Program-made: the position numbers
Part shown: positions 6,001 through 12,000 of the stretch, one piece after another
Layout of the letters: each line of letters starts with the position of its first letter
How positions within the stretch are numbered: the first letter of the stretch is position 1
Source of the DNA: a virus
Lineage: Duplodnaviria; Heunggongvirae; Uroviricota; Caudoviricetes
Strand: one strand, 5' to 3'
IMG/VR virus record: IMGVR_UViG_2529293040_000022
Length of the DNA stretch: 22,206 nt

Positions 6001-9000
6001 TTCCCCTGCCGGTTTTTTATTCCTCACATTATCGCAGCCCCTCAGTGAAGGGCTGCTGTAATGCCTGCTCTTACTCAGTAACGACCGCGCCTTCCGGTAA
6101 TTTCATACCGGCAAATACCGGACAGCCCGGGGATCGTTATCTGCAGCTGGTTAGCCAGGGAGTTAATCTCAGCGACCAACACTGGCTTCGTATAGCGCCA
6201 TGCCGCCAGCCCTTGTCCACAGAAGCTCGCCATATCTTTTTTCTGATCAAACTCATGACACTTCATATTGAGCTGCGCACTTAAGCTGTTGCGATGCTGA
6301 AGTTCTCCGGTGAAGTAGTCATCCAGGACTTTATAGGCTGCATATTTAAATCCGGGGTTTAGCCATGCTGCATAATCATAAGCAACAAACTTCCCGCCAT
6401 ATGTTCCACCGTGTACACCGCGCTCAGTAAAAACCACAGATTCGTGTTTTTTCTCCAGCTACTTAATGCGCTGGGTGCGGATATATTCCTGCGCCCCTTC
6501 CAGTTGCTTCTGCATCGTCATCAACCGTTCTCTGAGGGTGAAATAATCCCGTTCAGCGGTGTCTGCCAGTCGGGGGCTGGTTGCATTATCCATGCTGGTG
6601 GGTCCGGTGGCTTCACGCACGGCTGCGGAGCAACTGGCATTGACCCGCAGGCGCTTACGACCAGCGGCAACATCAGCGCGCAGAGTTTCATTTTCAGTTT
6701 TCGCATCGGCTAACTCCTTCGTGTATTTTGCATCGATCGCAGCAACATCACGCTGACGCTGCTGCATGTCAGCGATGGTGGCGGTCGCCTGCTTCAGCTC
6801 ACTGACTTTTTTATCACGCTGTTCTTTGTAGGCGATGGCGTTATCACGGTAATGATTAACAGCCCATGACAGGCAGGCGATAATGCAGATAACCAGAGCG
6901 GAGATAATAACGGTTACCCTGCTCATTGTTGCCCCCACAAACAGACTTCACGCTCAATCTCGCGGCGAGTCATCAGCCCTTTCCATTGCTTACCGCCAGC
7001 GTATGTCCAGCGCCGTAGCTGATCACATGCGCCTTTGATATCGCCCTGGTTTATTTTGCGAAGAAGCGTCGATGTTCTGAAATTGCCAGCGCCCACGTTG
7101 TAAACGAACGAGTAAAGAGCGCCGCGCGTTGTTTCCGGTATATCGACGTTGATGTACGGGTTAATTTGTCTGGCGACCGTGGCAAGGTCTTTATTCAGGA
7201 GGGCTTTGCATTCTGCTTCGGTATACGTTTTACCGAGCATAATGTCTTTTCCGGTGTGCCCGTAACATACAGTCCATACACCAACGATATCTTTATATGG
7301 TATGTAGCTGACGCCTTCCAGACCATCGTTACCACTTGGGCCAGTGATTAACACAGATGCTATAGCAATAGCCCCGCCACCAATAGCCGCAGCAACGGCT
7401 TTTCGTAATGATGGAGGCATTATTCACCTCTCGCAGCCTTACGCTTGTCTTCTCTGATTTTGAAGTACAGATTTGTCAGGTAAGTCAGAAAGCCCAGAAC
7501 CAGACTTCCCAGCACACCAATCGCAGCCCACTGTGACGGACTGACCTGATCAAGCCACTGTAAAAACCAGTAGCCAGCACTACCAGCGGATGTTCCGTAG
7601 GCAATGCCAGTAGAGATTTTGTCCATTGATTTCATAGCAACGCCTCCGCCAGTAACGGATTGCGTAGTTCTTATATTGGGAAGGGGAAAAAAGAAGGCCG
7701 CAGCGTAACTATCACTAATAAATTCAGGACAGCCAGTGGCTACGGCTCAGTTTGGGTTGTGGCGGCCGGAATCGAACCGGCTTCCATCGGTGCGCTGCCG
7801 ATTGCAGTACGCGCGGCGGTCAGCTATATGACTAGTATTTTCACTATCGCCTATCTGCTAGCTCGCCATTGAGCTTCACCACAACGATAAGAGCACTGCG
7901 CGGCACCTTTCACCAATTCCGCGAGGTCTGCGGGTTCAATGCTCTTACCTGTTGTGCAGAAAAAAACCACACGGCAGCGAGTTTAAGCTGTGTGGCGAAG
8001 TTACCTCTCTTCACCAAGTATTCGGTAATAAAATAACTTGTGGTGTTCTCGTTTTTATGCCGATAAAATAAACGGTCCACTTTCAAATGGAGCGATTCAT
8101 GATTTTTCTCAGAACTGAAAACGGCATCGAGAAACTTGAAAACTGGGAGGAAATTATATCCAGACCAAACTTTGTCACCACTATAGACAAAGGAGTTCAA
8201 CAACTTGAGGAGATAATTGGTTACTACAAATTTAAAGAAGAAATCCACTGTGGTCTAACTGGTTGCAACCAACCACATCAAATGGGTTATATTGTAAAAA
8301 CATCTAGTGGCATTGAAACCAACATCGGAAATAAATGTGGTAAAAACGAATTTGGTGTGGAATTTGGTGAAAACGTTCTTAGTTTCAATAAATTTATGCA
8401 ACTCGAAACCAATCGGGAAATTATTAGCACCGCAAAAAGTAAATGTGAAGCGTGGCAAAAAAATATTGAAACGATACGAAATATCAAACCCACAATAGAT
8501 TATCTATCTTCTACCATCGAAAATAGTAAAAATTCCAATTACTCCGGAAGACTTGGTGCTACAGAAATTCGTTTTTTGACCAAGAACCAGACAGGCCTTG
8601 TAACCCTTTCTGAAGTGGAAACTGATAAGAATACCAAAACAATTCTGTTCGCAATGAATGAACACATGCGCGAGTCTGGAGAGGCAATAAGTGAATTCTA
8701 CATAGGAAAAGTATCATTTAGTCATGTTCTTTTACCAGAAAACAATCTTCGTGATTTTTTTGTTGCGCTCAAAGAAGATCTAAAAAAAATTCAGTGTATT
8801 GATCTACAAACAGCCCCAAGCCCAGAAATTTCTAATGTTGCCAAAATTGCCAGTTCAATCGAAGAACGAATCAAGCGATTAAAAAAACTGAAACATGAAG
8901 CCAGTAAATTCCTAACTAAAAAAATCTGCGTCCCATCGCAAACAAAATAAAATACTCATCGACAGCGGATGAACTTGAATTCCATAATTTCGAACGCTTT

Positions 9001-12000
9001 TTAAAAGGGCTGAAATGATAAAAGCCCCGAAAGGGGCTTCTATCAAAATCATTTACGCATTATTCCGCATGCTTAAAAGAATACATGACAGATTCGGACA
9101 AAATCAAGTGCAATGTCGCAAAAACCCTAAGCTTAGTTCACATCATCACCAAAACTTGTCACATTCTGAAAAGCAATATCGGCCTTACGCTCTTCCTGGT
9201 GGCAAATGTCAACCAGAGAATCAAGAAACGGCTTCCAATTACGCGTCCATGTCCTGACATGTAGCTCGGGTATCCGCTTCAGTACAACTTTATATACTGT
9301 GGTAGACGGTACCGTGGAAAATCCATTTCCGCTGCAACGTTCGCAGATTTTAAACACTGGCACACCACGCTCGCTTGTGGCTTTGCGGTCCAGTACCTCT
9401 CCCTTTCCACCACAACGACACCTGGCACTTATCACTCCCTTCCCTTTACATACATCGCAAACGACTGGTACAACTTCCGTTACCTCTGTCCATTTCTCCC
9501 AGTCTGACGGTCGAACAGCACGGGAGCGACTGGCCCAATATGGTGCTTTACCCCATGGGTATGAAACCTTACGAATGACCTGCTTACGGGGTGTTAGTCC
9601 GGTACCACTGCAACTATGGCATGTTACGCTGGTGTCCGCCGATCGGGAATACTCAGCAAAAGCAAACTGCGCCAGTACCAGCATACACCAGCCAAATTCA
9701 CCACCAGCTGCTTTACGCACATTCTTCGGTGCAATTTCCATCGCGTGACGCGCCAGCGCTTGGACTGCCATCTGCTCATCAGTCTTGCTGATACCGGCCT
9801 TCCCGAAGAAGGCCGCCAAGCCAAACCGTTCACGATTGCTGGTGGTACCAATAGCCGCCATAACATCGGTGCCTGTAAGACGTTCCGGAGAGGTTCCTTT
9901 CACATCGTCGCCGATATACATTCCCTGAGGACTGAAGTATTTTAGCGATGCCTCAAGCTTCATTATTCACACTCCCCAACCAGATTAAGAATAACCGCCG
10001 CGCCATTGTCTTTCATATATTCGCCCTTTCCGCTTGCCAAAAACCAACGACACACCTCCACTGCTTCAGCCCGTGTCACCGGTTTGATGGTCATCAGCAA
10101 TTTTTCAAGGTAGCGCTCGCGGTCATATACCGATTCGTGATGCTCAGAGTAACCATACTCATCGCCCTGTTCTTTAGACGCAGTGTGGCGAACACTGTAG
10201 AGCCAGTCCCAGTAAACAAACTCACGAACTACGTCTGACAATGTATGAGGCTCTGGCAGTACATCACGATAGCCATCAACATATGCACGACGCTGATCAT
10301 CAATTTCATTCATACGGATGCCATCAATTCTGCCCGCTGTCTTCTCGGCTGCAGTCCAGCCCCAGAGATGATCGTCGATAAATTTCTGGGAAGACTTGAT
10401 CACTCGCTCGGCTTCCACATCTTCGAGTGCTGCTTCATAGCTACCAAACGTAGCCCTGACTGATGTTGCTTTTTTGATATTCTCCCGGGCGATCCTGATT
10501 GCCTGTGCCGGGTTATCCATGCCGATGGTACCGAAAGCAATCTGGAAAGGATCACCACCATTCGCCAGCAGATAACGCGAATAGCGTTCCTGGGCCTCTT
10601 TTGGGGAAATTTTAATTTTCACCAGCGCAGCCTCAGCAGCATCCAGATGTGCGGGTTCGTTCAGACGGATAACCTCCAGCACCCAAAGATAAGCATCAGT
10701 CTGCTTATGCCCGGTGATTCTCCGTTGCTCTGGCAGGGGCTTGATGTTTGCGAGGGCGGAGCTGTACGCTGCCGTCGGGATGGTGAATAGTGCTTTATGT
10801 TCGTTGTTATCAGTACGCATTACGCAACCGCCTTTTTCTTATGGAAAACCAGCTCTCGAACCTGATCACCGTTCATGAGCATATTGTTGAAATCATCGTG
10901 ATCCGGCCAGTACACGCTCACGCGCTGCAGGTCATTCTTTGCCATCAGATTGGCATGAGCACATTCGCAAGCCGCAGCCAGCCCGGTGGCGCTGTTCTCG
11001 TCACGGTCGGCAAAAATAATCAGGTGCAGAACACCAGCTGGTACGCGGAACTTTTTCATAAAGCCGCTGTTAATGGTTGCCCAGGTGTTCACGTTATAAA
11101 TCTGGTGCGCTGACAGCGCTGTTTCGATGCCTTCGGCGATACCCAGAGTGCTAGCAACAGGAAACATGCGGATAGCTACAGAACGAGCGTGATCCAAATA
11201 GTTATCTTCCTGCAGGGATTTGAGGCGCTTTGCACTGCTACCGATATCTGCTTTTTTATCACCATCAAGCAGAGTCTGGTGCAGATAGCACAACTCCCCT
11301 TTATCGTCCGTAGCAAGTGAATAAAGAGACTGGAACACACTCCCGTTGTGTCTCTGCCTGGCATTGAACCGGATCGCCTCAGCAGGAAGACTGAATATTC
11401 CACGAGAATTAAGATACGCTGCGCCGGATGTACCACGCAGTGCCTCCAGTTTTGAAAACTTGCTCAATACCCGTTTGCGTAAGCTGGTGGCGCTGCTGGT
11501 TACCGGGATTTTAACCCGTTGGTAATCATTACCGATCAGGCGGTCTATTTCGGTACAAATCTCGTTAAATGGCTTCGCCTGTGTCAGGGTGACAAGTTTC
11601 ATACCATCGCCACTACCACATACACAGATCCACGTTCCTGCACCGTCGCGGTCATCAATTCGGAACTTGCCACGTGCACCGCATACCGGGCATTCACCCT
11701 TGAAGTGATTTTTTCCTGTTATCGGCGGCAAGCCGAAGTGCTCTAATATTTCAGGCCAGCGGCCTTTCGCTGCAGCTGCTGTTTTCATCTTACTGACTCA
11801 AACTGTTTATATTTTTCTGGAGTTGTTGCTTTGCTTGCATGATGCGCCAAGCCTCAGTGCCTATTGGCATCTCGCTTCGCTCACCTCGTTCCTGAGACAG
11901 AGGAATCGTTGCCTGCAATTTTTCTATAGTTCTCTGCGTCCGCTGACGGCCTTTGGCAAACCGAATCAGCTTGTGTTTGATGTAGTTACTTACTTCTGGG

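Follow-up and report, generated by a model that had tools for sequence, protein, structure and literature searches.

In the lambda-like prophage studied here, an AT-rich gene lies between the antiterminator gene Q and the lysis genes and is read against the direction of the late operon. This raises the question of whether it is variable cargo or a regular component of the late control region, and what its product may do. The window, i.e. the whole stretch of DNA that was analysed (22,206 nt, IMG/VR record IMGVR_UViG_2529293040_000022), contains the following features in and around this interval.

9133..9963, minus strand: antiterminator Q, phi80 gp17-type, with two PF03589 repeats (E 2.6e-52) and DnaJ-like zinc fingers
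8099..9018, plus strand: the gene proper, a member of phrog_7003, 306 aa if its poly-A tract is A8; TGA at 9016-9018 ends the intact frame
7692..7966, minus strand: late leader common to HK75 and many lambdoid phages
7420..7635, minus strand: S21-type pinholin, the first late gene met after the antisense gene

Q, the S21-type holin, lysozyme and Rz/Rz1 are all located on the minus strand, and the ORF indeed stands opposite to all neighbouring late genes, as was noticed when the sequence was first read. Its AT-richness, reported in the same reading, is borne out by GC comparison. The GC content of the gene is 0.354 (GC3 0.31) vs 0.508 in the flanks and 0.48-0.54 in neighbouring genes, making it compositionally foreign, and it is AT-richer than the flanks in 12 of 13 hosts. 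The late leader includes a tRNA/tmRNA-like 3' fragment at 7754-7812.

Limits of the gene and the poly-A tract

Two short sequence elements determine how the gene is read.

8089..8092, plus strand: Shine-Dalgarno sequence GGAG, 6 nt ahead of ATG 8099
8918..8924, plus strand: poly-A tract, codons K274-K275-N276, A7 in the window

The sequence-only reading described a 287-aa ORF. An uninterrupted plus-strand frame of this length does exist at 8087..8950, but it represents a 306-aa gene read in shortened form. With A7 in the tract, as sequenced, the frame runs only to 8950 and encodes 283 aa if translation starts at ATG 8099 and 287 aa if it starts further upstream, at the in-frame ATG 8087. The true start is ATG 8099, and homologues (306 aa) begin with MIFLRT. 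The -1 shift at 8918-8924 costs the 99%-conserved N276 and the final two helices; the C-terminal FLxxxN[LI] motif (N276) and the terminal helices are therefore not intact in the window copy, in which the sequence from N276 onward is replaced.

Among the 22 tract alleles typed besides the window, 21 are A8 and one, in phi467, is A9, which identifies the 287-aa ORF as a frameshifted form of the gene at 8099-9018. A8 is also the reading in two sister prophage contigs that share 99.9% identity with the window. The only single-base indels common to both sister comparisons are one-base contractions of A8 runs, at 7960 and 8918, and their confinement to these two runs is a pattern of pyrosequencing error. 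Judging from these alignments, the A7 frameshift is probably a homopolymer sequencing error. If the frameshift were real, the window's genome would carry a dead pseudogene with no functional product. The window itself does read A7, and its exact 283-aa product is on deposit as EHU28111.1 for E. coli DEC2A; moreover, truly broken E. coli alleles exist elsewhere, namely a 132-aa A6 form on 11 contigs and a nonsense mutation in the M8 lineage. Set against A8 in both sister contigs and in nearly all other alleles, and against the pyrosequencing-like indels, a pseudogene is rather improbable.

Association with Q, pR' and tR'

The regulatory elements found on both sides of the gene are given below.

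9078..9107, minus strand: candidate late promoter pR'; -35 TTGATT (9107..9102), 18-nt spacer, -10 TATTCT (9083..9078)
9010..9045, minus strand: tR'-type intrinsic terminator; GC core hairpin (9039..9022), A/U extension and T-rich tail
8041..8069, plus strand: candidate own promoter of the gene; -35 TGGTGT (8041-8046), 17-nt spacer, -10 TAAAAT (8064-8069)
7960..7995, minus strand: second hairpin with a T7 run (T8 in sister prophages), just beyond the 5' end of the gene

The candidate pR' begins about 25 nt past the stop codon of Q. The region thus shows the Q - pR' - tR' architecture, in which a sigma-70-like promoter just past Q is followed, within ~60 nt, by a hairpin and a T-rich tail. This promoter is conserved in 611R1, Salmonella and N61, while in 611R1 the tR' stem is swapped for a different stem. 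Past Q, hexamers resembling pR' and a terminator persist even at loci whose gene has only 24% identity; the same layout is annotated in phi80, whose Q is 41% identical, and is present at three loci with a DUF1133-type Q. The proposal that the gene lies antisense inside the Q-dependent late leader is supported.

Bracketing of the gene by two hairpins was also proposed earlier. Both are present, but the roles assigned to them have to be exchanged. The hairpin at 9022-9039 is tR', with a folding energy of -22.3 kcal/mol (z -4.9) when read on the minus strand; the stop codon of the intact antisense gene directly adjoins it, and the terminator is probably bidirectional. The hairpin at 7960-7995 is a second terminator, although its folding energy alone is not significant, being not above that of shuffles (z -0.43). 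It marks the point at which the gene module is joined by recombination to leader DNA like that of HK75.

An own promoter, as suggested for the gene, stands as a candidate. The -10 TAAAAT is part of a promoter-like non-coding block conserved in clades with only 57% protein identity, while the -35 is poor and a consensus promoter scan gave no match at this position.

Protein family and predicted fold

The earlier description of the protein as domain-less holds for Pfam, NCBIfam and PADLOC, but not for PHROGs. It matches phrog_7003 from end to end (E 1.1e-99, 334.8 bits; residues 5-279 on profile positions 1-278 of 309). As this PHROG has no functional annotation, membership names the family only. 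A profile search (E<1e-3) delimits the family to 839 clusters at 50% identity, mostly standalone proteins of ~300 aa, spread over plant, gut and marine bacteria.

Eight residues, Y43, C51, C56, H60, G63, G77, C80 and G81, do not vary among 115 diverged homologues and are all present in the window protein. The Cys/His cluster singled out in the first reading (C51, C56, H60 and C80) is accordingly a genuine family feature. Searches for a catalytic family in Pfam, PADLOC and PDB found none, in line with the absence of a recognisable catalytic motif noted before: neither the window protein nor any of the 115 members has a Pfam domain, the window protein has no NCBIfam match and no match to PADLOC-DB 2.0 models at E<=1, and the 115 members gave only six isolated single-member hits to the latter (E>=0.0015). 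The AlphaFold (AF2) model is confident (pLDDT 94.7, pTM 0.85), and its comparison with PDB gave no meaningful fold match. In the model, the N-domain, which is acidic (9 K+R vs 13 D+E), resembles chromo/SH3-like folds; it is a candidate, at most, for the chromo/chromoshadow superfamily, whose mark is a three-stranded antiparallel sheet packed against a C-terminal helix. No TM segment or signal peptide was detected. The protein is apparently soluble and non-enzymatic and putatively binds zinc; its N-terminal domain would be of a CCHC chromo/SH3-like type, its C-terminal domain helical.

Constancy at the slot and variation around it

The gene was described at first as cargo inserted in the slot where Shiga-toxin genes reside. 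Its foreign composition and the identity of the slot are both upheld, as in Stx2f phages the same gene is located between Q and stxA2f. The notion of cargo is not, as the gene is constant next to Q-pR'-tR'. In all 46 informative IMG/VR viral contigs it is convergent with Q, at a distance of 89-192 nt and with two Q families. Variable cargo (stx2f, tRNAs, a methylase, IS200/iraM) instead sits past the 5' end of the gene, where stx2f is found in 3/3 complete Stx2f genomes. Found in at least 46 prophage contigs, whose Qs belong to two unrelated families, the gene is a conserved fixture on Q-pR'-tR'.

Alleles at the slot are exchanged. A 24%-identical allele takes the same place in backbones otherwise 98% identical, and in E. 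coli the allele switches together with the 3' third of Q. One gene clade (57% identity) is found with Qs of 44%, 64% and 71% identity and with a DUF1133-type Q. Family members also occur in other settings: antisense near cI in Klebsiella and Pseudomonas phages, in a toxin-antitoxin/integrase island, and, for distant members, amid housekeeping genes, adjacent to nrdAB or beside panB in Alloalcanivorax.

The gene can be lost. In 2012EL-2448 it is deleted down to its last 27 codons while pR'-tR' is kept, which indicates that it is dispensable, and phi80 has pR', terminator and holin in succession, without the gene in the slot. Broken E. coli alleles include the M8 nonsense mutation, an A6 frameshift in phi467-like phages and one deletion, so selection may be weak. 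With regard to the hallmarks of a moron, foreign composition (GC 0.354 vs 0.508) and absence between the same genes in relatives (phi80, 2012EL-2448) were both observed; an own promoter may be represented by the conserved -10 block with its weak -35 and no scan hit, and the terminator is shared with tR'.

These distributions bear on whether the gene is a regulator or cis-acting brake of its own late operon, in which convergent transcription or the protein would dampen pR'/Q read-through in the lysogen or tune the timing of lysis or of Stx2f. The protein might then bind RNA polymerase, Q or the leader. The invariable link to Q-pR'-tR' at 46/46 loci with two Q families, the shared terminator abutting the stop codon, and the joint change of the E. 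coli allele and the 3' third of Q are in its favour. Pairing of one gene clade with diverse Qs, however, speaks against strict co-variation; members exist far from any Q, beside cI and on chromosomes, several prophages with a deleted or broken gene retain pR'-tR', and phi80 has a homologous Q but no such gene. We consider this role unlikely.

The gene might also act on the host, for lysogenic conversion or fitness, for instance by modulating stress or virulence, or encode an addiction-type toxin, in either case unrelated to phage defence. Such a host-directed factor would suit the adjacency to stx2f and the distant homologues embedded in housekeeping operons; other morons of the Q-S slot (stx, porins, csp genes) are host-directed. 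The protein is nevertheless cytoplasmic, its family occurs equally in bacteria of plants, the gut and the sea, fold searches revealed neither a toxin nor an effector, and a conserved adjacent antitoxin-like partner is missing, which makes such a factor distinctly unlikely.

Possible function of the gene

Tentatively, and as a possible rather than a probable assignment, we favour a single-gene prophage accessory module whose product most likely confers superinfection exclusion or abortive infection, and does so by binding to a component of phage or host, not by catalysis. The gene probably belongs to the accessory or defence genes, expressed in the lysogen and switched off by the phage's own late transcription.

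Its working may be envisaged as follows. The gene lies tail-to-tail with Q, directly behind pR' and tR'. In the lysogen, a weak promoter of its own, with -10 TAAAAT, would drive its transcription, the mRNA ending at the shared hairpin, where constitutive pR' transcripts would halt from the opposite side. On induction, Q-modified RNA polymerase would pass tR', cross the whole gene antisense and then the second terminator, and thereby reach the lysis genes, or stx2f in Stx2f phages. Collision and antisense pairing would shut the gene off. A gene on in the lysogen and off in lysis fits a product harmful to the phage's own lytic growth.

A moron or defence-like reading is in keeping with the AT-richness, the conserved promoter-like block, allele replacement at the slot, the cI and toxin-antitoxin/integrase settings, and dispensability. 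Homology and fold searches gave no match for any of the three functions suggested earlier, i.e. defence, toxin or conversion factor.

Several observations weigh on the other side. For defence, these are the lack of PADLOC-model similarity in the 115 members and of similarity to TaiEcA, and the nrdAB- and panB-adjacent members, which do not look defence-like. For the favoured explanation as a whole, they are the poor -35 of the own promoter, below the consensus scan, the broken E. coli alleles, with the weak selection that they may reflect, and the strict linkage to Q, which could instead mean a role in late regulation.

A more specific version is that the family constitutes a new class of lysogen-expressed immunity protein with self-tolerance by position: placed tail-to-tail on tR', it would be silenced only by the Q-antiterminated polymerase of the resident phage, and would recognise, by means of its zinc-chromo-like domain, a component of invading phages or their antitermination complex. 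This is quite unlikely as it stands. If true, in Stx2f phages the gene would be a ~1-kb convergent barrier setting Stx2f yield on induction.

Comparison with known systems

The Q-S slot of lambdoid phages is known to hold stx1/stx2, tRNA genes, nanS-p, the porin genes lc/nmpC and csp genes. The gene described here shares with them the antiterminator-holin interval and foreign composition, and adjoins stxA2f in Stx2f phages. It differs in orientation and constancy: slot cargo is co-directional with the late operon, Q-expressed and variable between related phages, whereas this gene is antisense, would be switched off by Q, and is constant beside tR'.

Lysogeny-side elements opposing late or antiterminated transcription are known in lambda paQ, a CII-dependent promoter inside Q without a protein product, and in HK022 Nun, a lysogen-expressed protein that arrests lambda transcription, being a small arginine-rich-motif (ARM) peptide protein encoded at the N locus. 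It is the position of the present gene by Q that suggests the comparison, and no homology or shared motif with either was found. A Nun-like exclusion factor would block Q- or N-dependent transcription of superinfecting lambdoid phages and spare the resident. Location beside Q/pR', or in the PL-proximal region in Klebsiella and Pseudomonas phages, absence of an enzymatic domain, and strong diversification of alleles at one slot are compatible with it. It rests wholly on position, however, and the dissimilarity to Nun or any other known factor, the acidic N-domain, untypical of nucleic-acid binders, and chromosomal members outside phages leave it very unlikely.

Comparable to the favoured accessory or defence gene is BstA, which reportedly carries a KilA-N-like DNA-binding domain at its N-terminus, is encoded close to the immunity region and owes self-immunity to a DNA element within its gene. 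No KilA-N-type Pfam match was found in the window protein or the 115 members, in which the N-domain resembles chromo/SH3-like folds instead. Both proteins measure ~300 aa, act or would act singly, and must spare the resident phage, by antisense late transcription in the proposal made here. BstA is a prophage-encoded, lysogen-expressed abortive-infection defence of Gram-negative prophages (Owen et al. 2021, Cell Host Microbe, PMC8585504).

The nearest parallel in layout is the Tai/Ati "non-contiguous operon" of phi80: there, too, a lambdoid prophage carries one immune gene that runs against its Q-dependent late operon. The proteins are dissimilar: TaiEcA (phi80 orf63) has 204 aa compared with 306 aa here, and gave BLASTP E 7.1 and hhalign probability 0.1% against the window protein. 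Tai is located past the lysis cassette, ahead of the packaging genes, and the present gene between tR' and the lysis genes. Tai acts by blocking tail assembly of infecting phages and has a cognate Ati as counter-defence; no conserved small late-strand ORF that could be an Ati-like counter-gene is evident beside our gene. Tai genes reside mostly in prophage moron loci and are undetected by PADLOC or DefenseFinder (PMC11364771). The antisense immune gene taiEcA shows constitutive expression in the phi80 lysogen, at a level that falls once Q is made (He et al. 2024, Nat Commun, PMC11364771). With this experimental precedent it is plausible, by analogy, that the gene described here acts in the lysogenic phase and is silenced by late transcription.

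Gene neighbourhood and limits of the antisense gene

The window represents part of a lambdoid prophage in which replication, regulation and lysis genes are all located on the minus strand.

Genes surrounding the antisense gene
11790-13448, minus strand: helicase
10820-11788, minus strand: primase
9963-10820, minus strand: phrog_6204 protein
9133-9963, minus strand: antiterminator Q (PF03589, E 2.6e-52)
7420-7635, minus strand: S21-type holin
6923-7420, minus strand: lysozyme
After the lysozyme, minus strand: Rz/Rz1

The gap between Q and the holin is occupied by a single long plus-strand ORF (8087-8950, 287 aa), and the core observation of the sequence-only reading, an AT-rich ORF opposite to the late genes, is correct. 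GC content of the gene is 0.354 (GC3 0.31), against 0.508 in the flanks and 0.48-0.54 in neighbouring genes, and its AT content exceeds that of its surroundings in 12 of the 13 hosts examined. Across the primase/helicase junction (window positions 10995-12101), ~1.1 kb is missing from two sister prophage contigs (L035 and L036), whose joint shows a 14-nt overlap. Either these contigs represent a deletion variant or their assembly has collapsed there. A fused helicase-primase call of 790 aa was noted in a Salmonella locus.

Homologues in the family are 306 aa long and start with MIFLRT, which corresponds to ATG 8099 in the window, preceded by GGAG at a Shine-Dalgarno position (8089-8092, plus strand). 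At the opposite end, homologues run 33 residues past the point where the window protein diverges, continuing after KFLTKK as NLRPIANKIKYSST. DNA alignment at positions 8918-8924 shows a tract of seven A residues (A7) in the window, A8 in E. coli N61 and M8, and A9 in phi467, while A8 is present in 21 of the 22 other alleles typed. With A8, the reading frame stops at TGA 9016-9018. The two sister contigs match the window at 99.9% identity over ~11 kb, and the only single-base indels that distinguish the window from both are A8 to A7 contractions, at 7960 and 8918. The frameshift is read as a probable homopolymer sequencing error and hence as probably not biological, a real mutation being the less likely cause. 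Other long homopolymers in the window may carry the same kind of error. As a point of annotation, the 287-aa ORF put forward in the sequence-only reading is a mis-read, frameshifted form of the 306-aa gene.

The product as sequenced is devoid of N276 (99% conserved in the family) and of the last two helices. A deposited protein from the draft genome of E. coli DEC2A, probably the strain from which the window derives, is identical to this 283-aa product. A truly dead window copy in its source strain, an explanation that depends on A7 being real, seems distinctly unlikely. The possibility that the poly-A tract is a programmed or conserved slippery site was rejected, because the tract is specific to the E. 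coli allele and Salmonella reads AAAAAGAAC. Another frameshift allele, in which A7 at the WQKN codons is shortened to A6, encodes a 132-aa product. It is found repeatedly, namely in phi467, three IMG/VR contigs and 11 contigs of the protein collection (P0271), Stx2f phages included. In addition, a nonsense allele at codon 10/11 marks a mouse-gut E. coli clone (M8 lineage). The A6 and nonsense alleles indicate that a fraction of E. coli carries a genuinely inactive gene.

A stretch of ~50 nt preceding the start is conserved even between clades with only 57% protein identity. This block contains a candidate promoter of the gene on the plus strand, with a weak -35 TGGTGT, 17-nt spacing and a good -10 TAAAAT (8064-8069). 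The site was not flagged in a simple consensus promoter scan, and the block is read as a predicted weak or regulated promoter.

Late promoter and terminators

Signals of the late strand
9107-9102 and 9083-9078, minus strand: candidate late promoter pR' downstream of the Q stop codon (-35 TTGATT, 18-nt spacer, -10 TATTCT)
9039-9022, minus strand: core of the GC-rich tR' hairpin with T-rich tail (-22.3 kcal/mol, z -4.9)
7960-7995, minus strand: second hairpin followed by T7, at the joint of the gene module and the leader

Between the pR' -10 and the 9039-9022 hairpin is a leader of ~30 nt on the minus strand, and none of 200 shuffles was equally stable as this hairpin. N61, a Salmonella prophage and vB_EcoS-611R1 all keep the promoter-hairpin unit, even though the antisense gene of 611R1 is just 24% identical; the 611R1 terminator stem differs in sequence and still forms a hairpin with a T-run. 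In phi80, whose Q (gp17) is 41% identical to that of the window (E 2e-72), the annotated pR', Q-binding site and terminator agree in order and spacing. An unrelated Q of the DUF1133/PF06530 type is present in prophages of Pectobacterium, Serratia and Providencia. In these loci, TTGACT is followed by a -10 element, a conserved leader GCTTCGCGAAGC, and a hairpin with a T-run that touches the stop codon of the antisense gene. This conserved layout identifies the GAAA-tetraloop hairpin at 9022-9039 as tR', which is shared with the antisense gene in a tail-to-tail arrangement. The hairpin at 7960-7995, to which tR' had been assigned from sequence alone, is instead a further late-strand terminator. 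It lies exactly at the junction of the gene module with leader DNA (7692-7966) common to HK75 and many phages, and its folding energy is not significant on its own (z -0.43).

A promoter scan between the antisense gene and the holin disclosed no promoter-like site. An alternative late promoter in this interval was thus rejected, also considering that homology to HK75 does not set in before the terminator T-run. Late transcription must therefore begin at ~9070 and run across the entire gene in antisense. Within the AT-rich gene, promoter-like hexamer pairs were observed in two antisense positions (8420-8487, minus strand) and one sense position (8959-8988, plus strand) directed toward tR' and Q; these are probably chance matches, three being observed against a shuffle expectation of 4.1. 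If they were active, the 7960-7995 terminator would shield lysis genes from spurious antisense transcripts.

The leader also contains a 3' fragment of a tRNA/tmRNA-like gene comprising T-arm and acceptor (7754-7812, minus strand; Rfam tmRNA E 1e-5, under the gathering score), and the leader with this fragment also occurs in HK75 and in many phages of Salmonella and E. coli. Related phages have 2-4 intact tRNA genes at this place. Intact tRNA genes as content of the window's slot were discarded, because ARAGORN detected none anywhere in the window.

Fixed position next to Q

In all 46 informative IMG/VR loci (the 47th stops at a contig edge), a Q homologue is located on the opposite strand, 89-192 nt past the 3' end of the antisense gene. 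This convergence spans family members from 98% to 24% identity and includes Q partners of both the PF03589 type (38-100% identical) and the DUF1133 type. The same arrangement is seen in NCBI genomes of Salmonella, Pectobacterium, Providencia and Serratia, and the tR'-adjacent gene was found in lambdoid prophages of Escherichia, Salmonella, Enterobacter, Serratia, Pectobacterium and Providencia. Sequences beyond the 5' end of the gene differ among loci.

Content of the slot beyond the 5' end of the antisense gene
Window, N61, KC-Dl-1: leader alone
F719: four tRNAs
phi467 and three complete genomes: stx2f and two tRNAs
Pigeon strain: methylase and tRNAs
M8: IS200/iraM/tolA

The three complete stx2f-bearing E. 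coli genomes all have an intact gene between tR' and stxA2f. Constancy next to tR', with variation only beyond the 5' end, therefore characterizes the gene as a fixture on pR'-tR' and not as the variable cargo of the slot, the role in which it had initially been cast.

Invariant linkage to Q-pR'-tR' could suggest a regulator or brake acting on the late operon of the phage itself, but we consider this unlikely in the light of Q swapping, natural deletions and contexts without Q. In ~22 E. coli genomes, Q is a mosaic: 98% identity over its first 78% gives way to a different last 22%, with pR' and the antisense gene exchanged along with it, which indicates a recombination breakpoint inside Q. The antisense gene behind this mosaic Q is a 314-aa allele just 24% identical. 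One gene clade is paired with several different Qs. In the 2012EL-2448 lineage the gene is deleted, with only its last 27 codons (3293-3373 in the compared locus, L029) left beside intact tR' and pR', showing that the Q-pR'-tR' unit persists without it; phi80 is likewise without the antisense gene. The antisense gene is thus dispensable and mobile. Among distant relatives, the gene is antisense beside the repressor in one Klebsiella and one Pseudomonas phage, one lies in a toxin-antitoxin/integrase island, and some are in plain chromosomal settings. A Nun-like factor acting against antitermination of other phages is a very improbable alternative, having the position of the gene as its sole basis.

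The window Q (9133-9963, minus strand) is 276 aa long and combines two PF03589 stretches with zinc-finger repeats of the DnaJ type (CXXCXGXG). Marine metagenome contigs (L012, L013) include a distant member of the antisense gene family with 33% identity over the N-domain (L013, 6001-6855). It directly follows nrdA-nrdB in the same direction and precedes a 79-aa gene, and its surroundings are chromosomal and not those of a phage.

Protein family and predicted structure

The window protein matches phrog_7003, a family of unknown function (E 1e-99), and has no match in Pfam, NCBIfam or PADLOC. Profile search through 1.84 billion representatives revealed 839 clusters at E<1e-3, nearly all of standalone proteins of 280-310 aa. 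Comparison of 115 diverse members with Pfam and PADLOC gave nothing meaningful, a profile search of PDB sequences returned only coiled-coil noise (E>=0.037), and Foldseek against PDB gave nothing at E<=0.001. The family is unannotated, is covered by no domain model and has no relative of solved structure.

Residues Y43, C51, C56, H60, G63, G77, C80 and G81 are invariant, and W16, G41, T74, N75, F85, F89 and N276 nearly so; C51, C56, H60 and C80 point to a putative CCHC zinc site. AlphaFold2 with the family alignment gave a confident model (pLDDT 94.7, pTM 0.85). Residues 1-85 form a beta-rich N-domain in this model; the remainder comprises a 42-residue helix and a C-domain that is helical apart from an inserted beta-hairpin. 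The N-domain is acidic and is the conserved half, the helical half being variable, and a hydrophobic segment is absent. In general, the protein looks like a binder, and nothing points to an enzyme.

Several specific assignments were rejected. Reading the N-terminal motif as an HNH/His-Me finger or as GIY-YIG was dropped, as the domain model resembles chromo/SH3-like folds while nuclease folds did not score. For a HEPN-like Rx4-6H in the C-terminal helices, R260 and H266 are unconserved across the family. A ClyA/NheA-like pore-former with a beta-tongue was dropped in view of the hydrophilic beta insertion at 167-204 and a maximal 19-residue hydropathy of 0.73. A host-directed conversion factor or addiction toxin is also distinctly unlikely, since no supporting fold or partner was found.

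Proposed role and comparison with known systems

The architecture, i.e. a real gene convergent with Q, located behind a conserved pR'-tR' and necessarily crossed by late transcription, is very likely correct. We propose that the gene is expressed in the lysogen, where its mRNA and the short pR' transcript would both end at the shared hairpin. After induction, Q-modified polymerase would read through, and collision together with antisense pairing would silence the gene. Such on-in-lysogen/off-in-lysis logic would suit a product harmful to the phage's own lytic cycle, most likely an exclusion or abortive-infection protein acting by binding. The full reading, a lysogen-expressed exclusion or abortive-infection protein silenced by Q read-through, is put forward tentatively, at somewhat less than even probability. 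In every complete Stx2f genome examined (n = 3), Q-modified polymerase meets the antisense gene before stx2f, and the gene could therefore influence Stx2f expression and toxin output.

A direct precedent is Tai of phi80, with antisense, late-operon logic like that proposed for the window gene: taiEcA is antisense in the late operon and made constitutively, and its level falls on Q expression (PMC11364771). Homology to Tai was tested and dropped, the window protein being unrelated. If the gene proves to serve defence or exclusion, it would be one more widespread single-protein system and a second, independent case of the Tai-type "non-contiguous operon" logic, suggesting that prophages in general may house self-harmful immunity genes in this manner.

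No mention was found in literature on the protein accession, in Stx2f phage accounts of the ORF, or in DefensePredictor supplements; in the literature that could be searched, the protein family, the predicted fold and tR' docking across two Q families are undescribed. The kind of element is already known: a lysogen-side accessory gene placed antisense in the late operon, in the classic slot between Q and the holin gene S.
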